From Rickettsiales bacterium (GTDB lineage: Bacteria > Pseudomonadota > Alphaproteobacteria > Rickettsiales > UBA3002), in NCBI GenBank assembly GCA_044239745.1, contig JBIIAV010000002.1, forward strand, positions 12,583 to 76,582: DNA of 64,000 nt, written 5' to 3'. Each line of letters begins with the position of its first letter. Positions within the stretch are counted from its first letter, which is position 1. Shown here in pieces: positions 1,306-59,952 of this stretch. A program made the position numbers and the translations under genes. The notes under the pieces are model-generated. The model was given only the letters and a program-made list of their open reading frames with translations, did not search any database and was not told the origin of the DNA.

Positions 1306-1566
1306 CTATTTACTATTGAGGACGCGCAGCGCCGTGTAGAACACATCCTTCACGTGTTCCTCGGGCTTGACGCGGCCGGTGCGCATTTCGTCGGCGATCT
1401 TTTTCCAGACATCGTCGGGCATCTCCTTGGCAATGATGGTATAGCCCGCCGCCTCCAGCGCCTTGAGCACCGCCTGCGCCTGTTTGGTATAATCCTCGAA
1501 GAAATAGCTCGAATCCGCCTTGCTGATAGCATTCTGAATCACGGTCTGTAGCTTGGGCTTGCTCAT
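1306..1566 (-). CDS. hypothetical 86-aa soluble protein, translationally coupled to putA
   Basis: Its ATG (1564-1566) overlaps the putA TGA (1563-1565) as ATGA. Intact ORF with no family recognised. Confidence 0.5.
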   Translation of the reverse strand: MSKPKLQTVIQNAISKADSSYFFEDYTKQAQAVLKALEAAGYTIIAKEMPDDVWKKIADEMRTGRVKPEEHVKDVFYTALRVLNSK

Positions 1567-4500
1567 GCCAGCAGCTCGACATTGCCGCCGATGGCAGCGG
1601 TGTTGATGGTGGTGGTGCGCTCGCTGATGAAGCGCAGCAAATAATGCGGGCCGCCCGCCTTGGGGCCGGTGCCCGAAAGCCCCTCGCCGCCGAACGGCTG
1701 CACGCCCACCACCGCGCCCGTCATGCTGCGGTTGACGTAGCGGTTGCCCACCGGCGCTTCGTCCAAGATCGCTTCCATCTTGGCGCGCAGGCGCGTATGC
1801 AGGCCGAAGGTCAGGCCATAGCCGCTGCCGCGGATCTCGCCTAAAATCTTGGGCAGCTCTTTCGATTTATACGTGAAGAAATGCAACACGGGGCCGAAGA
1901 TCTCCTCGCTAAGTTGGCTGGGCGAATCAAGGCCGAACACGTGCGGCGGCACGAAGGTATCGTCCGATGGGGGCGTTGCCCCCAAACCCCCTCCGCTTCG
2001 CGGCTCGCCTTCGGCTACGCACGGCTGAATCTCGCACGCATGGTGCCAGCGCGCGACGCGCTTCATCGCCCCGATATGGGCAAGCAGGCCTTGCTGCGCC
2101 CCACGGTCGATCACCGGACCGATATCGGTCGCAAGGTCGCGCGTGTCGGCCACCCGCAATTCGTCCATCGCGCCCACCAGCAAATCGCGCAGATGTTGCG
2201 CCACTTCTTCCTGCACAAATAGCATCCGCAAGCTGGAGCAGCGTTGCCCCGCCGAGCCGAACGCGCTCGTGATAATATCGTCGCAGGCCTGTTCCAGCAG
2301 CGCCGAGGAATCGACGATCATGGCGTTCATACCGCCCGTCTCGGCGATCAGCGGCACGATCGGGCCGTCCTTTTCGGCCAGTGCGCGCGCAATATATTTC
2401 GCAACGGTCGTCGAGCCGGTGAAGCAGACGCCCGCCACCTGCGGTGCCGTCACCAACGCGGCGCCCACCGTCTCGCCCGCGCCGCAGGCCAGCAGCAACG
2501 CGTCGGTCGGGATGCCCGCCTCGTGCAGCACGGCCACCGCTGCGGCAGCGATGCGCGGCGTTTGTTCGGCCGGTTTGGCGACCACACTATTGCCCGCAAC
2601 CAAGGCCGCCGCCACTTGGCCGATGAAGATCGCCAGCGGGAAATTCCACGGGCTGATGCACACGAACACCCCGCGGCCATGCAGCGTCAGCACGTTGCTT
2701 TCGCCGGTCGGCCCGTTCAGCGTTTGCGGCGCAAATATGCGTTCGGCCTCGTTGGCATAATAGCGGCAGAAATCGACCGCCTCGCGCAGCTCGGCCACGG
2801 CATCGGCATAGGTCTTTTTGGCTTCCGTCACGCATAGGGCGATCATGGCGTCGCGGCGTGCCTCAAGCAGGTCGGCGGCGCGGCGCAAAGCGGCCGCACG
2901 CGTCGCAACGGGGGTCGTGTCCCAGCCATGGAAGGCTGCCTGCGCCCGCGTCACCATCACCGCCGCATCGCTGGCGTGCATGTCCTTGGGTGCGGGTGTG
3001 GGGGTCGAAAAATGCTGCGCAACATGCTGCATGAAATCAAGGCGCACACTGCGGTAACCGAAATCGATGCCGAGCGGATTCTTGCGCGTCGCACCGTAGA
3101 GATCGACCGGCAGCGGAATATCACTCGCCGGTTGTGCGTCGGCGGCGCGCACATGCGCAATCGGGCTTACGGTCAGGTCATCGACCGCCGTGCGTTTATC
3201 CATCAACAGATGCACGAACGAGCTATTGGCGCCATTTTCGAGCAGCCGGCGGATGAGGTAGGCGAGCAGATCCTTGTGCGCCCCGACCGGCGCATAGATG
3301 CGCACGCGGTAGCCGGTAGCATCGTGATGCGCCGCTTGCGTAGGCTCCGCCGCCCCCTTAATCGACACAAGCTGATCATGCAGGCTTTCGCCCATGCCGT
3401 GCAAACGTTGGAACTCATACTGCGCGGGCACACGTTGCTGCGCCTCGGCCATGGTGATGATGGTGGCCACCGTCAGCGCGTTATGGGTCGCAAATTGCGG
3501 GTAAATCGTATCGCCCGCCGCCAATAATTGCTGCGCACAGGCGAGGTAGGAAAGGTCGGTATATTCCTTGCGCGTGAACACGGGATAGCCCGCCAATCCC
3601 TGCATCTGCGCATGCTTGATCTCGCTGTCCCAATAGGCGCCCTTGACCAGCCGCACCGGAATGCGTCGGCCCAGTTTCTTTGCCAATGCTGCAAGCGTTT
3701 CGGCCACGAACACGGCACGCTTCTGGTAGGCCTGCAACACGAATCCGATGCCCTCGAAATCGGCAAATTCGGGGTCCTCGAGCAGGTTCTTATAGATCTC
3801 GAGCTCGATCTCCAGCCGGTTGGCCTCCTCGGCATCCAGCGACACCGCGATGCGGTGCGCCTTGCCTTCGCGTAGAATATCCTTCAGGCGCGGTAGCAAT
3901 TCGTTCATCACGCGCGCTTCCTGTGTTTGGGCATAGCGCGGGTGCAGTGCCGAGAGCTTCACCGAAATGCCGGGGCGGGCGAACAGTTCCGTCTCCTTCG
4001 TCGCCGCCGCGATTTGGCGAATGCCGGTGAGGTACGATTGCACATAGCCTTGCGCCTGCGTGTCCGTGCGCGCGCCCTCGCCCAAAATGTCATAGGAAAT
4101 GGTGTAGCCCTTGGCCTCGTCGTCCTGCGCTTGTTTGATCGCGTCCGCCACCGTTTCGCCCATCACGAATTGGGTGCCGAGGAATTTCATGCCGGCGCGC
4201 AGTGCTTGCCGGATCACCGGCTCGCCGGAGCGTTTGATGAGCCCGCCGAACCATGCGGCCATCGAATCGCCGGCGTCCAAATCCAGCACCGAACCGGTCA
4301 GCATCAGCGCCCAGGTGCTGGCGTTCACCAGCGTCGATTCGCTCTGCCCCAGATGCTGCTTCCAGTTGCCCGAGGCGAACGTATCCTCGATCAGCGCATC
4401 GGCGGTGCTGCTATCGGGAATGCGCAGCAGCGCCTCGGCCAGGCACATCATCGCGATGCCTTCCTTGGTCGATAGGCCATAGGACTGCAAGAACGCCTCG

Positions 4501-4688
4501 ACCGTGTTGGCCGAGCCGACCGCGCGTTGCTTGGTGATGAGGGCGTGGGCGCGCGCGCGGATGGTGGCGTCCATCGCCGTAAGCGGGCGCACCCGTTCCA
4601 GCAGCGCCTGCACGCGGGTGCGTTCATCCGCCAGTGCGTGCGCGCTGATATTGTCGAGCCAATGTTCCATGGCCGCCGACCTTGCCAT
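1563..4688 (-). CDS. putA: bifunctional proline dehydrogenase / L-glutamate-gamma-semialdehyde dehydrogenase PutA
   Basis: About 1040 aa. PRODH barrel region plus aldehyde dehydrogenase domain (FTGST, EAGGKNA-like ETGGMNA, catalytic SAGQRCS). Start moved to ATG 4688 (MARSAAMEHW...) because the longer track ORF would overlap the tRNA at 4781-4857. Confidence 0.93.
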   Translation of the reverse strand: MARSAAMEHWLDNISAHALADERTRVQALLERVRPLTAMDATIRARAHALITKQRAVGSANTVEAFLQSYGLSTKEGIAMMCLAEALLRIPDSSTADALIEDTFASGNWKQHLGQSESTLVNASTWALMLTGSVLDLDAGDSMAAWFGGLIKRSGEPVIRQALRAGMKFLGTQFVMGETVADAIKQAQDDEAKGYTISYDILGEGARTDTQAQGYVQSYLTGIRQIAAATKETELFARPGISVKLSALHPRYAQTQEARVMNELLPRLKDILREGKAHRIAVSLDAEEANRLEIELEIYKNLLEDPEFADFEGIGFVLQAYQKRAVFVAETLAALAKKLGRRIPVRLVKGAYWDSEIKHAQMQGLAGYPVFTRKEYTDLSYLACAQQLLAAGDTIYPQFATHNALTVATIITMAEAQQRVPAQYEFQRLHGMGESLHDQLVSIKGAAEPTQAAHHDATGYRVRIYAPVGAHKDLLAYLIRRLLENGANSSFVHLLMDKRTAVDDLTVSPIAHVRAADAQPASDIPLPVDLYGATRKNPLGIDFGYRSVRLDFMQHVAQHFSTPTPAPKDMHASDAAVMVTRAQAAFHGWDTTPVATRAAALRRAADLLEARRDAMIALCVTEAKKTYADAVAELREAVDFCRYYANEAERIFAPQTLNGPTGESNVLTLHGRGVFVCISPWNFPLAIFIGQVAAALVAGNSVVAKPAEQTPRIAAAAVAVLHEAGIPTDALLLACGAGETVGAALVTAPQVAGVCFTGSTTVAKYIARALAEKDGPIVPLIAETGGMNAMIVDSSALLEQACDDIITSAFGSAGQRCSSLRMLFVQEEVAQHLRDLLVGAMDELRVADTRDLATDIGPVIDRGAQQGLLAHIGAMKRVARWHHACEIQPCVAEGEPRSGGGLGATPPSDDTFVPPHVFGLDSPSQLSEEIFGPVLHFFTYKSKELPKILGEIRGSGYGLTFGLHTRLRAKMEAILDEAPVGNRYVNRSMTGAVVGVQPFGGEGLSGTGPKAGGPHYLLRFISERTTTINTAAIGGNVELLA
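1966..2022 (-). repeat. palindromic-element copy inserted in-frame in putA
   Basis: Gene-sense sequence is GTGCGTAGCCGAAGGCGAGCCGCGAAGCGGAGGGGGTTTGGGGGCAACGCCCCCATC. It encodes CVAEGEPRSGGGLGATPPS inside the ALDH domain. Confidence 0.7.
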
Positions 4689-4780
4689 GCCCACGGCCAA
4701 TGTCAACACGCGGCAGCATTCGCCCCCGCCGATTCGCGGCTTCCCCCGCCCGTGCGATTGCGCTATGACCGGCCCAACGT

Positions 4781-4857
<77 letters not shown>

Positions 4858-4874
4858 TCAGCTTAATTTAAATT

Positions 4875-5104
4875 GAAGGGGGCATCGCCCCCTACGCGCC
4901 GCCCATTCACACGTTTGTGATTAGCGTTGCGTAGCGCTTTATGGCGCATCCGCGCGGGAGAGGCGCAGCAACGCGAAGCCAATCACATCGCGCTACGCGC
5001 CGCCCATTCACACGTTTGTGATTAGCGTTGCGTAGCGCTTTATGGCGCGAGCCGCGATAGTGGAGGGGGTTTGGGGGTGATACCCCCATCCACGCGCGAA
5101 GCGC
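4875..5104. repeat. tandem/composite copy of the palindromic-element family immediately 3' of tRNA-Arg
   Basis: GGGGGC-ATC-GCCCCC hairpin at 4878-4892. A 56-bp perfect direct repeat (4892-4947 = 4993-5048, period 101 bp) contains GCGTAGCGCTTTATGGCGC. It ends with GAGCC...GGGGGT-GAT-ACCCCC. Confidence 0.85.
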
Positions 5105-10394: not shown

Positions 10395-10572
10395 TCGATT
10401 ATAAAAATTATCCACGGGCGGCAGGGTGGGGTGGTGGCAGTGCGGTGGCGTCATGGTCGTCCGAACGCGCCGCGACGCTTGCTTCCTTGGCCGCTTCATC
10501 GCACAATGCCGCTTGACAGGAATGGGCGTACTGCCTAGACCTCCCCCGTTTGTCCGGAGAATGTTTGCGCAT

Positions 10573-10630
10573 GAAGGGGCCTCGCCCCTTCGCGAACGCT
10601 GACCCGAGGCTCGCCATGAAGGCTACGCAC
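10573..10630 (-). repeat. intergenic copy of the palindromic-element family (carA leader region)
   Basis: Reverse complement reads GTGCGTAGCCTTCATGGCGAGCCTCGGGTCAGCGTTCGCGAAGGGGCGAGGCCCCTTC. Confidence 0.75.
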
Positions 10631-10653: not shown

Positions 10654-11904
10654 ATGACCATGCCGCTGAAACCTGCACCCAACGCCGCCTTACTTCTTGC
10701 GGATGGGACAGTGTTTTTTGGCCAAGGCATCGGGCAAGCGGGCACCACCAGCGGCGAGATCTGCTTCAACACCGCCATGACCGGCTATCAGGAAATCCTG
10801 ACCGACCCTTCGTATGCCGGCCAGATCATCACCTTCACCTTCCCGCATATCGGCAATGTCGGCACGAATGACGAGGATATCGAGAGCCTCGTGCCCGTCG
10901 CCGCCGGACTCATCCTGCGCGAGGCGATCACCGAACCTTCGAACTTCCGCAGCCAAAGCCACCTCGATGCGTGGATGAAAAAGCACGGCCTGCGCGGCAT
11001 CAGCGGGGTGGATACGCGGGCGCTGGCGCGCCATATCCGCATCAACGGCGCGCAGAATTGCGCCATCATCATCAGCGCGCAAGGCGCGCCTAACCTCGAT
11101 AAACTCAAAGCCGCCCTCGAAGCCGCACCCGACATGAACGGCTTGGAATTGGCCGCGCATGTGACGACGAAAGAAGCCTATACGTGGCAAGAGCCGCGCT
11201 GGACATTGGGCGCGGGGCATACGCCGCAAACGCAAGCGGTCGATGCATCGGTGCGTAGCGTAAGCGAGCCGCGCAGCGGCGGGGTCAGCGGCGAAGCCGC
11301 GAAGGGGCAAAGCGCCCCTTCATTGTGCCACGTAGTGGCAATAGATTACGGCGTCAAACGCAACATCCTGCGTTCGCTGATATCAGCCGGCGTGCGCCTC
11401 ACGGTCGTACCCGCCACCGCCACCGCCGAGGAGATCTTGGCCCTCAACCCCGACGGCATCTTCCTAAGCAATGGCCCCGGCGACCCCGCCGCCACCGGCA
11501 GCTACGCCGTGCCCACCATCAAGAAACTGATTGCCAGCAGCAAGCCCCTTTTCGGCATCTGTCTTGGCCACCAGATGCTCGGCATCGCCCTTGGCTGCCG
11601 TACCGAAAAAATGCGCCAAGGGCACCGGGGTGCCAACCATCCGGTGAAGGATCTGGCCACCGGCAAGGTCGAGATCACCTCGCAGAACCACGGCTTCGCG
11701 ATTAGCGATACCAACCTACCCGAGGACGTCGAAGTCACCCACCGCTCGCTGTTCGATGGCACCATTCAGGGCATCCGCGTCGTCGGCAAGCCCATCTTCA
11801 GCGTGCAAGGCCACCCCGAGGCCTCGCCGGGGCCACATGATTCGCACTACCTTTTCCAGCGCTTCGTTCAGTGCATGCGCGCCGATACAAAGAAAGCAGC
11901 CTAA
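10654..11904 (+). CDS. carA: carbamoyl-phosphate synthase small (glutaminase) subunit
   Basis: 416 aa. Conserved N-domain and class-I GATase (GICLGHQ, HGFA, QGHPE). Stop overlaps the carB start (TAATG). Confidence 0.96.
11251..11322 (+). repeat. palindromic-element copy inserted in-frame in the carA interdomain linker
   Basis: GTGCGTAGCGTAAGCGAGCCGCGCAGCGGCGGGGTCAGCGGCGAAGCCGCGAAGGGGCAAAGCGCCCCTTCA. It encodes [24 protein letters not shown]. Confidence 0.75.
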
Positions 11905-15279: not shown

Positions 15280-15963
15280 ATGTCGCGCCCAGACCTCATC
15301 GCCCTCGCCACCACTCATGGTACAGATAAATGGAATGGCCACTGGTATGCGCAGCATTATCAAAACCATTTGAAACACTTTATAGATGAGCCAATTTCCT
15401 TACTTGAAATCGGCATCGCGAATGGTGATTCGCTGCGCATGTGGCGTGACTATTTCCTGAAAGCGACCATTTACGGACTCGATATCAATGACAAACGGCA
15501 GTATGCGGAAGAACGTATCCGTATCCATCACGGCTCACAGGCGGACCCCGTCACTATCGCCCGCATCATCGCGGATTGCCCAAACGGCTTCGACGTCATT
15601 GTGGATGATGGCAGCCACCGTAGCGAACATGGCATCACAACACTCCACATGCTCTGGCCAAGCCTAAAGGATAATGGCTGGTATATTATTGAGGATCTGC
15701 AGACCAGCTACTGGGCTATGTTCGGCGGCAATCCGCAGGGCGTCGGACAACAAACTATGTTAGACTACCTGCAATCGCTGGTTCATTCCCTCAACTGGCA
15801 GGAAATTCATCGTCCCCGCTACGAGCCCAGCCTGCTCGATACAACGCTCGTTGGCATGCATTTCTATCATAACATGGTCTTCCTTCAGAAAGGTAATAAC
15901 CGCGAAGGTAGCAACGTCCTGAAGGATAATATCATGCCCAATACCATGCCTTGGGAGAACTAG
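15280..15963 (+). CDS. class I SAM-dependent methyltransferase (HGTDKW... sugar/LPS-modifying type), in an AT-rich islet
   Basis: 227 aa. Motif I LLEIGIANGDS, post-I IYGLDIN, motif II FDVIVDDGSH, motif III GWYIIEDL. AAGGA ribosome-binding site. The sequence is visibly AT-richer than its flanks. Confidence 0.75.
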   Translation: MSRPDLIALATTHGTDKWNGHWYAQHYQNHLKHFIDEPISLLEIGIANGDSLRMWRDYFLKATIYGLDINDKRQYAEERIRIHHGSQADPVTIARIIADCPNGFDVIVDDGSHRSEHGITTLHMLWPSLKDNGWYIIEDLQTSYWAMFGGNPQGVGQQTMLDYLQSLVHSLNWQEIHRPRYEPSLLDTTLVGMHFYHNMVFLQKGNNREGSNVLKDNIMPNTMPWEN

Positions 15964-16052
15964 CTTCTTGAACACTTCTTGCAGATAGATACGCTTATCC
16001 GCTATAGAGAGAGCTGCCATTCATACAGATATTGATAATACACGGAAATATC

Positions 16053-16529
16053 ATGGAAAAAATCCCAATGACCCAAACGGGCTTCACCCGTCTTGAGAAG
16101 GAACTCAAGAGCCTGAAATCGGTCGAGCGCCCCGCCGTCATCGCCGCGATCTCGGAAGCGCGTGCCCATGGCGATCTGAAGGAGAACGCCGAATACCACG
16201 CCGCCAAGGAAAAGCAGAGCTTCATCGAAGGCCGCATCCAAGAGCTCGAGGCCGTCATCAGCCGCGCCGAGATCATCGATGTGAAGGCCTTGACCGGCGA
16301 TAGCATCAAGTTCGGCGCCACCGTCACCATCGTCGACGAGGACACCGAGGAAAAGATCAAATACCAGATCGTCGGCGATTACGAGGCGGACATCAAACGC
16401 AATCTCATCAGCACTTCGGCGCCCATCGGCCGCGCCCTCATCGGCAAAAAAGTCGGCGCCAGCGTCGAGGTCGTAACCCCCAAAGGCGCGCGCTTCTACG
16501 AAGTGCTGAAGGTGGAGTTCGTCGAGTGA
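16053..16529 (+). CDS. greA: transcription elongation factor GreA
   Basis: [22 protein letters not shown]... has a GreA-typical N-terminus and length of about 158 aa. The track start at 16032 is a TTG, so the ATG at 16053 is preferred. Confidence 0.93.
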
Positions 16530-17482: not shown

Positions 17483-17490
17483 TTTTTTAG

Positions 17491-17671
17491 TAGGGGACTC
17501 TTTGTCCCCTACGCTTCGCTGACCCCCAGCCGCTTCGCGGCTCGCCATGGAAGGCTACGCACCGCCTACTCAAACGTTTGGATTATCCGTGCGTAGCGCT
17601 TTATGGCGCGAGCCGGAGCGAAGCGAACGAGGGGGAACGGAGTGGGGGCGAAACGCCCCCATAGCGAAGCG
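17491..17671. repeat. full inverted dimer of the palindromic-element family between convergent genes
   Basis: Left hairpin GGGGAC-TCTTT-GTCCCC. Left arm CCGCTTCGCGGCTCGCCATGGAAGGCTACGCAC. Loop CGCCTACTCAAACGTTTGGATTATCC. Right arm GTGCGTAGCGCTTTATGGCGCGAGCCGGAGCGAAGCG. Right hairpin GGGGGC-GAAAC-GCCCCC. Confidence 0.85.
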
Positions 17672-41532: not shown

Positions 41533-42981
41533 CTAGTGGTGGGCAGTGGATGCGGTGACCGCAGCCGTGATGGATGCAGGTAGCGGGCGCGGTTTCTCGA
41601 TGCGGCCGACGATGGGCAGCACCACCAAGAAATGCGCGAAGTAGTAGCCGGTGCACAGCAACGAAAGCAGCGGGAAGATGCCTTCCGGCGGCTTGCTGCC
41701 GCAATAGCCGAGGATTACAGCGTTGATGGCGAACAGCCAGAAGAACCAACGATAGATCGGGCGGTAATTGCTCGAGCGCACGGGGCTGGTATCCAGCCAC
41801 GGCAACGCGAACAGGATGAGAATGGCGCCGAACATGGCGAGCACCCCACCGAGCTTCGACTCAATCACTGCGCCTGCAAAGCCTGTCACCGTCAGCACGG
41901 TCGCAAGCGTGAGCATCGACGCGATACACATCACGCCGCATGGTTTCTTGGGCAGGAACGAAGCCAGCGCCCCCAGAATGCCGTTGGTGCCAAGCAGTGC
42001 GCGCACCAGCGTCGCGTAGCGCAGCACCGCGGTCAGCCCGAACAGGCCAAGGCCTAAAATCCATAGCGGGATATCAAACGTGATGGCGCGCAGGATCGCG
42101 TAGAACGGCAGGAAATACCATTCCGGCACGATGTGCTTGGGCGTCACCAGCGGGTCAGCGGGGATGTAGTTATCGGGGTGGCCGAGATAGTTCGGCGCGA
42201 AGAACACGAATGCCGCGAACACCAAGAAGAACACCCCGAACCCGAAGAAATCTTTCGAGGTATAATACGGGTGGAACGGAATTTGGTCCTGCGGGCCCTT
42301 CACATCGATACCCGTCGGGTTGTTGCTGCCATGTTGGTGCAGCGCCATCAAATGCATCATCACCACGCCGACCAGCACGAACGGCATCAGAAAATGCAGC
42401 GCAAAGAAGCGGTTCAGCGTCGGGTTATCGACCGAGAAGCCGCCCCACAACCACGCCACGATATCCTCGCCCACCAGCGGGAAGGCCGAGAACAGGTTGG
42501 TGATCACCGTCGCGCCCCAGAAGCTCATCTGGCCCCATGGCAGCACATAGCCCATGAACGCCGTCGCCATCATCAGCAGCAAAATAATGATGCCAAGGAA
42601 CCATAGCAGTTCGCGTGGCCGCTTGTAGGAGCCGAAATACAGCCCGCGCGCGATATGGATGTAGGTGACGATGAAGAACATGCTGGCGCCCACCGCATGC
42701 ATGTAGCGAATGAGCCAACCGTAATTGACGTTACGCATAATCTGCTCGACCGAATCGAACGCGAGCGCGGTGGAGGCGGCATAGTGCATGGCAAGGAACA
42801 GGCCGGTCAGGATCTGGCTGACGAGCATGACGCCCGCAAGCGAGCCGAAGTTCCAGAAATAGTTCAGGTTGCGCGGCGTCGGGTACTGAACCAGCGAGTT
42901 GTTCAGCATCGAGAAAATCGGCAGACGATATTCGATCCAACCGACGATACCGGGTTTTTCTTCCTGTGGTGCGTGGGCCAT
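41533..42981 (-). CDS. petB: cytochrome b of the bc1 complex (with an unusually long hydrophobic insertion after the PEWYFL motif)
   Basis: 482 aa. His ligands in the [13 protein letters not shown] and [20 protein letters not shown] contexts. [13 protein letters not shown] motif. Confidence 0.94.
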
Positions 42982-43427
42982 TAGCTTACCCCTTTTCCTT
43001 TGTTATCGATCATTCCTACGCTTCTGGCGGTATGCAAAATTTGATTTTTCAATTCGCCGATTTCGGTCGATTCCGTGTTGACGATGGTGAGCATCTGCTT
43101 CACGACGCTTTTAAGTCCCTCGCGGGTCGCTTTCGGCATATCCCTATCCTTCTCTGAAGCCGTCAGCACATGCATGATCGCGGCACAGAGGTAGTGCGGG
43201 TCTTTTGCATCGGCGTCACCGACTGCGTTGAACGCATCTAAACCCCAACTGCTCATGCCATAGCCTTCGCGCAAGCCGCCGGTTCTCGCCCCGCCCGACA
43301 GTACATGGCTGGCCACGGCGCGCATTTGTATCACTACGTCCGAACGTTTGAATAGCGCTTCAAGCCGCAGCTTGAGAGTCACATCGACCGGCGCAGAATA
43401 CAGATTGGGTGAGAAGGCAATGGTCAC
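42981..43427 (-). CDS. hypothetical 148-aa soluble protein inserted between petA and petB
   Basis: Intact ORF filling the whole petA-petB gap. GTG start 3 nt after the petA stop. Its TAA overlaps the petB ATG (TAATG). Visibly AT-richer than its neighbours. No TM segments or known motifs recognised, and only a weak ribosome-binding site. Confidence 0.5.
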
Positions 43428-43430
43428 GAT

Positions 43431-43970
43431 CTATCCAATTTTCACTTTGGTGTCCGTCATAAATTCATAGGGCGGTATCATCAAATTCGTAGGCGCGGGG
43501 CCTTTGCGGATGCGCCCCGAGGAATCGTAGTGCGAGCCATGGCACGGGCAGAACCAGCCGTCGTAATCGCCGCCGCCGGAGCCGATCGGCACGCAGCCCA
43601 AATGGGTGCAAACGCCCACCATCACCAGCCATTTTTCCTTGCCCACCTTCACGCGCGCCGTGTCCGTCTCGGGGTCGCGCAGCTCGGCAATATTCACTGC
43701 ATTCGCCTCATCGATATTTTTGGCCGTGCGGTGGCGAATGAACACCGGCTTACCGCGCCACATCACCTTAATTTCCTGCCCCTCAGCGATCGCGCCGATA
43801 TCCACTTCGGTGCTCGAAAGCGCCAACACGTCCGCGCTGGGGTTCATGCTGTCGATGAACGGCCAGATCAGCGCCGCAGCACCAAGGCCGCCCATGGCCT
43901 GTGCGCTGAGCACCAAAAAGTCGCGGCGGGGGGGGTTGTCGGGGTTGGTGTTCGCGTGGTCGGCGCTCAT
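43431..43970 (-). CDS. petA: ubiquinol-cytochrome c reductase Rieske iron-sulfur subunit
   Basis: Tat signal RRDFL. 2Fe-2S boxes CTHLGC and CPCHGS. GAGGA ribosome-binding site. Confidence 0.95.
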
Positions 43971-44138
43971 ACATCCTCAGGGCTAAAACGATTGCTTTTC
44001 ACGTCTGCTACTAGGGGTAGCAAGGCCTGTCAAGTTACGAGGCGGGCGAACGGTGGATAGGGCATGGTGAATAGTGGCGTGCTGACGCGTTTGTGATACA
44101 ACCGGCGGCATCGCGTTTCCCTCCACGGCCGGCATCCC

Positions 44139-44672
44139 ATGCTCAATCTCGTCCTCTATCAACCGGATATTCCCCAAAATCTAGGGGCTTGCCTGCGGCT
44201 TTGCGCATGCATGGGCGCCACGGTGCACATCATCGAGCCCTGCGGCTTTGTGCTGGATGATACCAAAATTCGTCGCGCCGGCATGGATTATATGCATAAA
44301 GTCAACTATGTCCGCCATCTCGATTGGCAGGCCTTTCTAAACTATCGCCATGCAGCGGATGAAGCCCGCGTAGCCTCCCATGGCGAGCCGCGTGCGGAGG
44401 GGGGAAGCAAAGCGAGGGGGGCGATGCCCCCTTCACGATTACTCCTACTCGAGACGGATGGCGCCACCCCCTACACCGAGATTTCCTACCAACCCACCGA
44501 TTACATCGTCTTTGGCCGCGAATCGGCCGGCACGCCGGCAGCGCTCTATGCGCAGATGGACACCACCCTCACCATCCCGATGGTGGCGGGCATGCGCTCC
44601 TTGAATGTCGCGATGAGCGCTGGCATGGTGGTCGCCGAAGCCTGCCGCCAAATGAATTGGAAATTTGCATGA
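44139..44672 (+). CDS. trmL: tRNA (cytidine/uridine-2'-O)-methyltransferase TrmL (SpoU/TrmH family)
   Basis: MLNLVLYQPDIPQNLGACLRLCA..., FGRESAGTP, IPM..GMRSLNVAMSAGMV. Roughly 24 aa longer than canonical because of the repeat insertion. Confidence 0.9.
   Translation: MLNLVLYQPDIPQNLGACLRLCACMGATVHIIEPCGFVLDDTKIRRAGMDYMHKVNYVRHLDWQAFLNYRHAADEARVASHGEPRAEGGSKARGAMPPSRLLLLETDGATPYTEISYQPTDYIVFGRESAGTPAALYAQMDTTLTIPMVAGMRSLNVAMSAGMVVAEACRQMNWKFA
44367..44434 (+). repeat. palindromic-element copy inserted in-frame in trmL
   Basis: CGCGTAGCCTCCCATGGCGAGCCGCGTGCGGAGGGGGGAAGCAAAGCGAGGGGGGCGATGCCCCCTTC. It encodes ARVASHGEPRAEGGSKARGAMPPS. Confidence 0.75.
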
Positions 44673-45766
44673 GCCTTGACGAGAAAAAAGCCACCGCCGC
44701 CGCATGGTTTCGCACCCTGCGCGACGATATCTGCGCCAAATTCGAGACGATCGAGGCGGAATACGCCGCCGCACATCCCGTAGCGGATTCGAGCATGCGT
44801 AGCGCGGATGGCCCGCGCGAGCCGGAGGCCGTTAGGCCGAACGATGGGGGGCCGGTAGGCGGGGGCGACTTCGCCCCCCGTGGCGAAGCCACCGCACGCT
44901 TCATACGTACTCCGTGGCAGCGCGACGGTGGCGGCAGCGGCGAGATGTCGATCATGAAAGGCCGCGTGTTCGAGAAGGTCGGCGTCAATATCTCGGTCGT
45001 TCAAGGCACATTTTCAGAGCAGTTCCGCCACGAGATCCCTGGTGCTAGCGAGGACCCGAATTTCTGGGCGGCGGGCATTTCGCTCGTCGCGCACATGGCA
45101 TCGCCCCTCGTGCCGGCGGCACATATGAACACCCGCATGATCGCGGTGGGCGAGCGCCCTACCCGCCTGTGGTTCGGCGGCGGCGGCGACCTCAACCCCA
45201 TGGTCGAGAATTCGCAGGACACCGCCGATTTCCACGCCGCCTTCAAAGCCGCCTGCGATGGGCTGAATACCGCAGCACATGCGAGCAGCGAGCCATCCAG
45301 CAACTACTACGACGCCTTCAAGCAATGGTGCGACGAATATTTCTTCATCCCCCACCGCAACGAGGCGCGCGGCGTCGGCGGCATTTTCTACGATTATCTC
45401 GGCCTCAACCGCTTCGGGGCGGATACCGCGCCCGTCACCTCCGGCCGCTTCGGCAAGGGCGGGGTCACCGCCGCGGCGACCGCTCACGGCATGCAGCTTG
45501 CCGCCAACGCCGCCATCGACTGGGGGCAAGGGCTTGCCTTCACGCAACAGGTCGGGCGGGCGTTCGCTTCCATCTACCCAGCCCTCATCCGCCGCCATAT
45601 GTTCGAGCCATGGACCGAGGCCGAGCGTCACCACCAACTCGTTAAGCGCGGGCGCTATGCCGAGTATAATTTGCTGTACGATCGTGGCACCCGCTTCGGC
45701 CTGATGACGGGTGGCAACACCGAAGCGATTTTAATGTCGCTGCCGCCCGTGGCTATTTGGGAATAG
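44669..45766 (+). CDS. hemF: oxygen-dependent coproporphyrinogen III oxidase
   Basis: From ATG 44669 (ATGA overlap with the trmL stop). Motifs WQRDGGG, H.NTR, WFGGGGDL, HRNEARGVGGIF, RGRY.E.NL.YDRGT.FGL and PP...W. Roughly 65 aa longer than the E. coli enzyme. Confidence 0.92.
   Translation: MSLDEKKATAAAWFRTLRDDICAKFETIEAEYAAAHPVADSSMRSADGPREPEAVRPNDGGPVGGGDFAPRGEATARFIRTPWQRDGGGSGEMSIMKGRVFEKVGVNISVVQGTFSEQFRHEIPGASEDPNFWAAGISLVAHMASPLVPAAHMNTRMIAVGERPTRLWFGGGGDLNPMVENSQDTADFHAAFKAACDGLNTAAHASSEPSSNYYDAFKQWCDEYFFIPHRNEARGVGGIFYDYLGLNRFGADTAPVTSGRFGKGGVTAAATAHGMQLAANAAIDWGQGLAFTQQVGRAFASIYPALIRRHMFEPWTEAERHHQLVKRGRYAEYNLLYDRGTRFGLMTGGNTEAILMSLPPVAIWE
44795..44890 (+). repeat. palindromic-element copy inserted in-frame near the hemF N-terminus
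   Basis: ATGCGTAGCGCGGATGGCCCGCGCGAGCCGGAGGCC...GGGGGCGACTTCGCCCCC...GGCGAAGCC. It encodes MRSADGPREPEAVRPNDGGPVGGGDFAPRGEA. Confidence 0.7.
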
Positions 45767-57382: not shown

Positions 57383-58012
57383 CTATCTGTTTCCGTGCGG
57401 TTTAAGTGATAATTGCGATATCGAAATAATGCTGGATATCGCATGCGTTTTACTTGGTTTTGCGGTGCTTTGATAGTCCCATGATTCACTGGCTTTTTTC
57501 AATTCCTCGGCAGCGTTTTCGCCTTTGGGAAAGAGGGCGATGCCCCCTGCCCCCATCAGCCGATGCGCCATAGCGAACAGACCATCCAGCGCCGTCAACG
57601 CCCGCGCCGTCACCACATCGTATTGCCCGACGAGCTCGGCGATATCGATCGCCATGACCGTAACATTGGAAAGACCAAGACGATGCTTTGCTTCGGTAAG
57701 GAACGCTGCCTTACGCTGGTCCTGCTCGACCAAGGTAACGAACAGTTGCGGACATTGTATCGCAATCACCAACCCCGGTAAGCCAGCCCCACTTCCCAAA
57801 TCGACAAGGGTTTTGGCATTTTTGGGAATCAACGGAACCAATTGCAAGCTATCATCGATATGGCGCGACCAAATATCGGCTTGTGTTGCAGGGCCAATCA
57901 GATTGATCTTCGCGTTCCACTTTAAAAGCAGCGCGACATAATCGGCCATGGGTGAAAATGTTTCACGTGAAACATTTTGTGGCGATGATGTTTGTTGATC
58001 AACACGAAGCAT
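57383..58012 (-). CDS. rsmG: 16S rRNA (guanine527-N7)-methyltransferase
   Basis: 209 aa. VSRET...LLLKWNAKINL N-terminus. SAM motif DLGSGAGLPG. Confidence 0.93.
   Translation of the reverse strand: MLRVDQQTSSPQNVSRETFSPMADYVALLLKWNAKINLIGPATQADIWSRHIDDSLQLVPLIPKNAKTLVDLGSGAGLPGLVIAIQCPQLFVTLVEQDQRKAAFLTEAKHRLGLSNVTVMAIDIAELVGQYDVVTARALTALDGLFAMAHRLMGAGGIALFPKGENAAEELKKASESWDYQSTAKPSKTHAISSIISISQLSLKPHGNR
57959..57974. promoter_or_regulatory. parS: parS centromere site 1 (inside rsmG codons for VSRET)
   Basis: Perfect TGTTTCACGTGAAACA. The palindrome extends to 24 bp (57955-57978). Confidence 0.9.
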
Positions 58013-58061: not shown

Positions 58062-58077
58062 TGTTTCACGTGAAACA
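58062..58077. promoter_or_regulatory. parS: parS centromere site 2 (rsmG-mnmG intergenic)
   Basis: Perfect TGTTTCACGTGAAACA. The palindrome extends to 26 bp (58057-58082). Confidence 0.9.
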
Positions 58078-58089
58078 TTTTTGGATGGT

Positions 58090-59952
58090 TCAGGCCGCGG
58101 ATTGACGGCGACGCATATAGGTCATGATGGCGGTGATAGCCGCTGGCGTGACGCCCGGGATGCGGCTGGCTGCGCCCAACGTGGGTGGTCGAGTACGTTT
58201 CAATTTGTCACGGATTTCGTTGGAAAGTGATCCGACCACATCGTAATCGACCGACTCTGGGATGACCAATTGTTCGTCCATTTTAAAGGATTCGATATCG
58301 GCCTGCTGACGTGCAAGATAGGATTTATAGACCGATTCGATCTCTATCTGTTCGCGAATATCCGGTCGGAAGGATTTCAATATTGGCCATATCTCTGATA
58401 GGCGATCGAAGCTGATGGTCGGATATGCCAACAGATCAAGAATGGAACGTTTGACACCGTCCTGATTAATTTGGAGTCCGACGTCGACTGCTTTATTGGG
58501 TGAAATTGTTTCACGTGAAACAATTTGCATCGCGTCTTCGAGGAGAGAATGTTTCACGTGAAACATTTTTTGACGTTCCGGACGGACACAGCCGATGGAA
58601 ATACCAATCGGAGTGAGGCGAAGGTCGGCATTGTCGGGGCGTAAGCTCAACCGATACTCCGAACGCGACGTGAACATACGATACGGCTCTTGGGTACCGA
58701 GGGTCGTGAGGTCGTCGATCATCACGCCGATATAGGCTTGCGAACGATCGACGATAAAGGGGTCGGAGCCAGAAGCGGCGAGGGCGGCATTAAGCCCCGC
58801 GACAAGCCCTTGGCCACCAGCTTCTTCGTATCCGGTGGTGCCATTGATCTGGCCGGCAAGGTATAAGCCTTTGACTTTTTTGGTTTCTAAGGTTTGTTTC
58901 AGTTCGCGTGGGTCGACATAATCATATTCGATGGCGTAGCCAACGCGGATGATATGGGCGTTCTCCAACCCCGGGATGCTGGCGATCATGGCGCGTTGAA
59001 CTTCCTCGGGGAGGGATGTCGAGATGCCGTTGGGGTAAACGGTGGTATCGTCCAAACCCTCCGGCTCGAGGAAAATCTGATGGCGCTCGCGGTCAGCAAA
59101 ACGGGTGATCTTATCCTCGATCGAAGGGCAATAGCGTGGGCCCGAGGACTTGATCTGTCCCGAATACATGGGCGAACGATGGACGTTGTTACGAATAATT
59201 TCGTGAGTTTTTTCAGTCGTATGTGTGATATAGCAGGTAATTTGCGGCACCGTTACGTGATCCGTCATATAAGAGAAGGGGGCGGGTGGATTATCGCCCA
59301 TTTGCGGGGTGAGGATGCTCCAGTTTATCGTTGTTCCATCCAACCGGGCAGGGGTGCCGGTCTTCAATCGACCGACGGTCAGCCCCAGGGCGCGAATGGA
59401 ATTGGCAAGGGCGATCGAGGGTTTTTCACCGACACGGCCGGCGGGCGTTTGCGTTTCACCACAATGGATGAGGCCATTCAAGAATGTTCCGGTCGTAAGT
59501 ACCACGCGGCCGGTTTGATAGGTGGTTCCGGACGCCCCGACAACGGCCACAACCGCGCCGTTTTCCATGACAATATCATCGGCCGCATCCTCGATGATGG
59601 TGAGGTTCGCATACTCGCTAAGCAAGGCCTGTACTGCGTTACGATAGAGTTTGCGATCGGCCTGCGCGCGCGGCCCACGCACCGCCGGCCCCTTACTGGC
59701 ATTGAGCATTTTGTAATGGATGCCGGCGCGATCAATAGCGCGTCCCATGACACCGTCGAGGGCATCGATCTCGCGTACCAAGGTGCCCTTGGCGATGCCG
59801 CCGATGGCGGGGTTGCACGACATTTCGCCCACCGTGTCGCGCTTATGGGTCAGCAAACAGGTGGTGGCGCCAAGGCGCGCGGCGGCCGCGGCAGCCTCGG
59901 TGCCGGCATGCCCGCCGCCAATGACGATGACATCAAATAATTTGTTATTCAT
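58090..59952 (-). CDS. mnmG: tRNA uridine-5-carboxymethylaminomethyl synthesis enzyme MnmG (GidA)
   Basis: 620 aa. [19 protein letters not shown] motif, [30 protein letters not shown]. Confidence 0.96.
58507..58522. promoter_or_regulatory. parS: parS centromere site 3 (inside mnmG, read as VSRET)
   Basis: Perfect TGTTTCACGTGAAACA within the 24-bp palindrome AAATTGTTTCACGTGAAACAATTT. Confidence 0.9.
58550..58565. promoter_or_regulatory. parS: parS centromere site 4 (inside mnmG, read as MFHVKH)
   Basis: Perfect TGTTTCACGTGAAACA, 43 bp from site 3. It is translated in a different frame from site 3. Confidence 0.9.

Follow-up and report, generated by a model that had tools for sequence, protein, structure and literature searches.

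The window, by which is meant the whole 64-kb stretch of DNA that was analyzed, carries a trmL gene whose reading frame runs uninterrupted through a GC-rich, repeat-derived segment. The gene, the segment, and the hallmarks of the repeat within it are arranged as follows:

44139-44672, forward strand: trmL, 177 aa, tRNA (Cm34/Um34) 2'-O-methyltransferase, assigned by TIGR00185, PF00588, and Foldseek
44364-44435, forward strand: in-frame repeat-derived insert in trmL, residues 76-99, ARVASHGEPRAEGGSKARGAMPPS
44368-44389, forward strand: family core in the trmL copy, comprising GCGTAGC (44368-44374, with the GTAG tag inside) and GCGAGCC (44383-44389)
44414-44434, forward strand: terminal hairpin of the trmL copy, GAGGGGGGC-GAT-GCCCCCTTC, predicted in the RNA fold

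The trmL product matches TIGR00185 in two stretches (E=5e-41, 140 bits) and scores below the curated cut-off of that model (190.6 bits) because the insert splits the match in two; Pfam SpoU_methylase (PF00588) is matched well over threshold (E=3e-30). Query residues 1-68/71 and 97-174 align with both TIGR00185 and Escherichia coli TrmL (4kdz/4jak), leaving unmatched the segment between the conserved DWQAFLNY(R) and (R)LLLLETDG blocks. This is where the original prediction had put an in-frame element, in a SpoU-type enzyme expected to measure about 155 aa otherwise, and TrmL orthologs without the insert are 150-155 aa long. The prediction was right about the location but not about the exact bounds, which it gave as 44367-44434, 3 nt off at the start and 1 nt off at the end. 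The insert comprises 72 nt, for a net gain of 24 aa over 153-aa orthologs, and the whole replaced loop corresponds to residues 71-99. The G+C content of the inserted segment is 73.6%, versus 56.3% for the remaining gene. Inserts that drop TrmL under the NCBIfam cut-off may cause such proteins to be under-annotated as hypothetical; the insert-bearing homolog P0013 (MBX9726352.1) carries the NCBI annotation "hypothetical protein."

Coverage by contigs from four independent metagenome runs of lake water shows that the insert is not an assembly artifact. A single contig extends across 43900-44825 with zero differences in three of these runs, and in the fourth (X4) the contigs are broken within the insert, with a gap at about 44374-44408. 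No insert-less variant of the window's trmL was seen in the contigs of the four runs. At its 3' end, the trmL stop codon overlaps the hemF start codon (ATGA, 44669-44672), an arrangement that suggests translational coupling of the two genes, and the gene order petA-trmL-hemF-ampG is kept in the related contig L081.

That the trmL segment is one copy of a dispersed element, as had been predicted, is borne out by two kinds of search. As a blastn query the segment retrieves 17506-17560 (84% over 55 nt, E=8e-9) along with weaker copies, and a leave-one-out profile, made from 26 copies none of which comes from trmL, scores 44368-44435 (68 nt) at 40.1 bits, with E=1.4e-11 in the 64-kb window. The full family alignment contains 33 copies, drawn from the window and 12 contigs (13 sequence sources in all), and describes a GC-rich, modular unit of 60-85 nt with optional middle modules, found singly or as head-to-head doublets. 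Both GCGTAGC and GCGAGCC are kept in at least 90% of the 33 copies, a few of which deviate by one base. The terminal G5/C5 stem is retained through compensatory changes, its outer pair being AU in 13, UA in 11, GU in 4, and CG in 2 of the 33 copies. Some 40-60 nt separate the GTAG tag from this main hairpin, and next to the tag itself there is just an invariant stem of four pairs. Of the six reading frames, the one reading GCG-TAG is closed in every case; the remaining five are open in 55-70% of copies, so that survival of the repeat in-frame is feasible.

A literature search found no earlier description of this repeat family, and an Rfam scan of the whole window returned one tRNA only, with no family matching the repeat. 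The full doublet found no match by blastn against plasmids. When a profile of the 43-aa tandem consensus peptide was run against a 5.8-billion protein set, it yielded a single match whose E-value of 0.76 is uninformative at such a database size. Scanning metagenomes with a 24-base pattern gave 36 loci, about two thirds of them unrelated coding DNA from 70%-GC organisms; the true family was found in some ten contigs, with a G+C content of 55-58%.

Profile searches define eight full units and one partial unit in the window, and half of the full units (four of eight) are in-frame within housekeeping genes, namely trmL, hemF, carA, and putA:

44366-44438, forward strand: trmL copy with the bounds given by the profile search, in-frame
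44796-44892, forward strand: copy in hemF (gene 44669-45766), in-frame, residues 43-75, reading frame shifted internally
11251-11325, forward strand: copy in carA (gene 10654-11904), in-frame, residues 200-224
1963-2022, reverse strand: copy in putA (gene 1563-4844, reverse strand), in-frame, residues 941-961, CVAEGEPRSGGGLGATPPS
17486-17562 (reverse strand) and 17589-17667 (forward strand): intergenic head-to-head doublet forming a REPIN-like long palindrome, 26-nt spacer
4872-5094: intergenic cluster by a tRNA gene, with a partial arm at 4872-4917 (reverse strand) and a full arm at 5028-5094 (forward strand)
10568-10630, reverse strand: intergenic copy upstream of carA

Several core enzymes are affected by the repeat in one 64-kb stretch. 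The profile-aligned region of the carA product, residues 11-409 (399 residues), spans 360 profile positions. The intergenic doublet (17486-17667) folds as DNA with -62 kcal/mol, a z-score of -7.8 against shuffles, and the same arrangement recurs in another contig (L100, 5909-6080). Neither a RAYT nor an IS transposase was present among the 20 window ORFs scanned with Pfam, all of which are ordinary housekeeping genes, and no RAYT lies between the inverted copies in L100, where the ORF resembles an ordinary membrane protein. Within the intergenic cluster, directly downstream of the tRNA gene (4781-4854), an identical 56-nt segment occurs twice at a distance of 101 nt, forming a tandem duplication (4892-5048). 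At the hemF copy, assembler word depth rises about 8-fold (44788-44861) and the contigs of all four runs break; core words of the repeat are therefore shared by many copies in the community.

The genomes closest to the window are uncultured alphaproteobacterial MAGs, and their trmL loci show that the site is variably occupied. Many of the best 120 TrmL homologs have 24-47 extra residues at the same place, with motifs like VASHGEP...GGLGxxPPS, and others have a loop of 5-7 residues and a length of 150-155 aa. The alignment of orthologs that had been proposed as a check of the prediction thus separates filled from empty relatives. Repeat DNA is recognizable at the trmL site in L081, L087, L092, L001, L125, and L127, and the site is empty, with the short 5-7 residue loop, in L002, L003, L086, L088, and L126. 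An extra segment without the DNA repeat, which had been named as the outcome that would speak against the prediction, was not encountered: six of six readable orthologs with the extra segment have repeat DNA. The insertion in trmL is not private to the genome of the window; many related uncultured lineages have it as well, in varied and partly decayed form. The copies in L125, L127, and L001 are weaker profile matches, and the hairpin is gone in L125.

At least two independent insertion architectures can be distinguished in the same TrmL loop. Type A, as in the window, has the form YR-x6-RVAS...PPS-RLLLL, and type B, as in L087, keeps the complete ancestral loop downstream of the insert. Relative to the empty site of L086, the L087 insert is bounded by an 11-nt direct duplication, TTGATTAYCGY; a target duplication was seen at this one event only, and other filled/empty pairs (for example, hemF site 2) are without it. 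TrmL cores that are 90-95% identical nevertheless differ in the presence or type of the insert, with bootstrap values of 0.91-1.0: P0003 carries type A but P0009 type B, with an element of another subtype, while P0004 has a filled site and P0018 an empty one. Filled L125 and empty L126 have a gene identity of 85.5%. Since such similar cores differ in insert state, the trmL loop has been repeatedly hit, emptied, or exchanged, and a lone ancient insertion with simple vertical descent was rejected as the sole explanation. The nested empty sites could reflect either repeated gain or allele exchange by recombination, the 150-aa tree being compatible with both.

The neighboring hemF gene shows the same variability, with three insertion sites whose occupancy varies between genomes (the window; L081, 10636-11964; L088, 810-1943; L001; L002). 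The hemF copy of the window is orthologous to the insert of L088, whose site-1 copy is recognized through alignment to the window's insert, the profile itself giving E=0.97. L002 and L126, which are empty at trmL, have profile-detected copies in the adjacent hemF. HemF is 442 aa long in L081 versus 348-377 aa elsewhere, and at hemF site 3 the window has a short remnant only (...AHASSEPSS..., about 45254-45310). A further in-frame copy is located in kdsB of L081 (gene 15407-16192, reverse strand) at 15862-15937, where it is antisense yet in-frame and encodes EGGLAPLTPAASGSLTLRT; this copy is bounded by an 8-nt inverted repeat, TTGATGGA/TCCATCAA. Among 887 kb from 80 alphaproteobacterial trmL loci, copies occur only in the two closest (L001 and L002) and in none of the 78 others. 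The repeat family is thus restricted to a clade of uncultured freshwater alphaproteobacteria.

Several systems of small dispersed repeats invite comparison, among them the Rickettsia palindromic elements, RPE-1 to RPE-8, reported by Ogata et al. (2000, 2002) and Claverie and Ogata (2003), and the GTAG-tagged REPs and REPINs, for which mobilization by RAYT transposases is reported (Nunvar, 2010; Bertels and Rainey, 2011; Di Nocera, 2013). To our knowledge, enzymes of the IS200/IS605 type make no target duplication. Intragenic copies have been recorded in other settings as well: GTAG- or CGTC-tagged REPs encoding 20-30 aa are catalogued from Opitutus terrae, Thauera, R. conorii, and others, with several free-living species among them (Di Nocera, 2013, PMC3733652), in-frame MITE insertions are known in Coxiella as QMITEs (PMC5896051), and enterobacterial MITEs can give in-frame fusions (Delihas, PMC3184786).

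The likeness to RPEs is close in several respects. In both systems, dispersed palindromic repeats are found in-frame in many alphaproteobacterial housekeeping genes (here trmL, hemF, carA, and putA, with kdsB and further hemF sites in relatives), where they add short extra peptides to surface loops, leave the host fold and motifs intact, and vary in presence between related species. The host here, however, is a free-living lake-water lineage of about 61% G+C rather than an AT-rich obligate intracellular bacterium, the unit consists of a GTAG-tagged core and a G5/C5 hairpin, and some orthologous copies are conserved above the genes that host them, in contrast to RPEs, for which a loss of repeat identity over time has been described (PMC6649704). 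Given the 74% G+C composition and the host, homology to RPE-1 to RPE-8 is unlikely, and the likeness is probably one of analogy only.

With REPs and REPINs the family shares the GTAG motif, GC-rich stem-loops with compensatory changes, a high copy number, and head-to-head doublets with a short spacer that form inverted long hairpins (17486-17667 and L100). It differs from them in its longer, modular units (60-85 nt versus 20-40 nt) and in the spacing of about 40-60 nt between GTAG and the main hairpin; in place of a short 20-40 bp imperfect palindrome adjoining the tag, the covarying hairpin is at the far end. Half of the copies in the window lie within genes, an 11-nt target duplication accompanies one event, unlike the action of IS200/IS605-type enzymes, and the search for a RAYT among the 20 window ORFs scanned and between the inverted copies of L100 was negative. 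Membership in the RAYT-mobilized REP group is unproven. MITEs, too, are non-autonomous inverted-repeat elements with occasional in-frame coding insertions, and a target-site duplication accompanies one event here; the insertions in the present family are, however, mostly single arms and not whole elements, the terminal inverted repeat ends are undefined, and the parent IS is not known. By analogy, the family may be taken to work like an RPE or an intragenic REP. It extends the occurrence of protein-coding palindromes, most familiar from Rickettsia with its reduced, AT-rich genomes, to a GC-rich, free-living freshwater clade of alphaproteobacteria.

Most likely, the trmL insert is a tolerated copy of a selfish, non-autonomous palindromic repeat that survives in genes only where it is in-frame, free of stops, and situated in a surface loop. 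The unit of 60-85 nt, with its GCGTAGC...GCGAGCC core and G5/C5 hairpin, has inserted in-frame into trmL, and in its behavior the family probably resembles REPs/REPINs, MITEs, and RPEs, as an element that is mobile or selfish but non-autonomous. A trans-acting enzyme that recognizes the invariant core presumably mobilizes it, and copies are possibly homogenized or exchanged through recombination. Intragenic copies persist where they add a multiple of three nucleotides, are read in a frame free of stops, and lie in a surface loop. The inserted peptide would be a passenger whose own sequence is not what is conserved.

Some observations run against this reading. Neither a RAYT nor an IS transposase turned up among the 20 window ORFs scanned, and a target duplication accompanies a single event. 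In addition, the DNA of the insert is conserved above the host gene, which is not predicted for a purely neutral passenger. Between the trmL genes of the window and L081, codons for the same residue are identical at 22 of 23 positions in the insert versus 78 of 120 outside it (Fisher p=0.002), nucleotide identity is 96% in the insert and 81% outside, and the comparison contains a 62-nt perfect tract. Similarly, at hemF site 1, the window and L088 share 93.6% nucleotide identity in the insert and 81-82% in the flanks, although indels shift the frame internally and the peptides consequently differ (AVRPNDGGPVGGG versus AEGRTRGSGSGG). Because identity persists across these compensated frameshifts, it is the DNA and not the peptide that is conserved. 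Such conservation is consistent with a mobilizing enzyme that recognizes the core and hairpin, with gene conversion or recombination over short tracts, or with selection acting on a DNA or RNA structure. It may mark either maintenance at the level of the nucleic acid or hot spots of short-tract recombination.

It is conceivable, but we consider it unlikely, that selection on the nucleic acid keeps the element in genes, the hairpin and core serving as a DNA or RNA signal and the peptide being a by-product. A signal of this kind might be a protein-binding site, a determinant of mRNA stability, or a site that pauses translation at a domain boundary, and an element placed before the TrmL knot could then modulate translation, folding, or mRNA fate. 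Conservation of orthologous inserts beyond the synonymous sites of the host, across frameshifts that change the peptide, would be expected under this explanation, as would the compensatory changes in the terminal stem and the retention of the two heptamers in at least 90% of the 33 copies. Recognition by a transposase or recombination enzyme, short recombination tracts, or gene conversion would, however, be expected to conserve the repeat equally well. Any constraint is, moreover, not universal, since the trmL copy has decayed in L125, L127, and L001, with loss of the hairpin in L125, and close relatives manage without the insert. An intrinsic terminator on the sense strand was rejected, as no T-run follows the hairpin on that strand and there is a weak antisense match only. 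A broader formulation, in which the repeat is a nucleic-acid element actively maintained in coding regions, recurrently at domain boundaries, through selection on the hairpin and core or through a dedicated homogenizing or mobilizing system, is judged just as unlikely; it draws on the conservation of DNA beyond that of the host gene, across frameshifts that scramble the peptide.

The tolerated, selfish repeat remains the preferred reading when the protein is considered. Modeling of the SPOUT fold with and without the insert, also put forward with the original prediction, was carried out on window TrmL and on the insert-less ortholog P0018, and it leaves the core intact and changes the α4-β4 loop. 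The AlphaFold2 model of window TrmL has a mean pLDDT of 84.7 and a pTM of 0.81, with residues 82-94 below a pLDDT of 50; helix α4 spans 63-80 and the next strand 101-104. The P0018 model (pLDDT 90.6, pTM 0.87) has helix α4 at 63-72, the next strand at 77-80, and no low-confidence region, and the order of secondary structures is otherwise identical in the two. In these models the insert thus extends helix α4 by about eight residues and adds a predicted disordered loop of some 13 residues rich in Gly, Pro, Ser, and Arg. The best Foldseek matches of the window model are all TrmL/YibK, with E. coli 4jak/4jal on top (TM 0.87-0.90 normalized to the target; 4jal TMt 0.90, rmsd 1.7). Like E. coli TrmL (4JAK/4JAL) and YibK of Haemophilus influenzae (1MXI), window TrmL is a minimal SPOUT fold with no extension domains, and it resembles them in its SAM- and tRNA-binding residues and in its length minus the insert; it differs in having 24 extra residues in the α4-β4 loop.

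The TrmL fold follows the order β1-α1-β2-α2-α3-β3-α4-β4-β5-α5-β6-α6, and in the E. coli enzyme, residues 121-157 are threaded through a hoop at 78-86 to form the knot, with tRNA binding mapped to R20, K42-R46, R59, R104, and R129 (Liu et al., 2013, PMC3763551). In E. coli numbering the insert falls between residues 68 and 71, and on the models it is placed in the α4-β4 loop upstream of the knot hoop, adjoining the knot but outside it, at the boundary of the Rossmann-like half and the knotted half and away from the mapped tRNA-binding residues. R20, R46, R59, and R153 (equivalent to E. coli R129) are invariant in TrmL alignment A1, and the insert leaves the modeled SPOUT core unchanged, as it does the conserved residues for tRNA binding and catalysis. 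The trmL gene is intact in many insert-bearing lineages, and insert-bearing TrmL is presumably functional, with the peptide a tolerated surface decoration. These proteins provide a natural experiment on how far a deeply knotted, minimal SPOUT enzyme tolerates insertion next to its knot.

It is improbable that the peptide has been co-opted as an appendage of TrmL, for example as a basic tRNA-binding arm in a "minimalist" SPOUT enzyme that has no extension domain. Such a role would accord with the retention of the insert in-frame across lineages with TrmL cores about 63-84% identical, with the Arg and Lys in the peptide, and with the surface position and extended helix. The peptide, however, varies widely in sequence and ranges from 24 to 47 aa in length, its region is predicted to be disordered (pLDDT below 50), it is absent from close relatives, and in hemF the same DNA gives different peptides after frameshifts; nor is the site among the mapped tRNA-binding residues (PMC3763551). 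Removal of the extra segment before the mature enzyme is formed, whether as an intervening sequence of the RNA or of the protein, is highly improbable. The idea stems from the segment being structured and dispensable in relatives and has no direct support, and the 72 nt lack the features of an intron or intein and match no Rfam family. The segment is without exception a multiple of three in length and free of stops, neither of which would be needed if it were spliced out, and expression of RPE-bearing Rickettsia proteins with the insert included has been reported (PMC3733652). Finally, chance resemblance of a GC-rich low-complexity loop, or a chimeric contig, is effectively refuted: short G-runs and GC-rich codons can yield spurious matches, as the unrelated coding DNA of 70%-GC organisms did in most metagenome matches to the 24-base pattern, but the trmL-free profile reaches E=1.4e-11 over 68 nt, the sequence is identical in independent assemblies and runs, and orthologous copies are recognizable in six other contigs.

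Two further features of the window deserve mention. Between the genes for the Rieske protein (petA) and cytochrome b (petB) lies a conserved ORF (42981-43427, reverse strand) of about 143-149 aa with no Pfam match, which is also present in L081 (8857-9288), L083, L086, and L087; in L125, petA and petB are adjacent and the intervening ORF is absent. An mnmG-(rsmG)-parA-parB cluster contains four perfect matches to the parS consensus TGTTTCACGTGAAACA, at 57959-57974, 58062-58077, 58507-58522, and 58550-58565, of which two lie within the coding sequence of mnmG; a location near the replication origin is therefore probable for the window.
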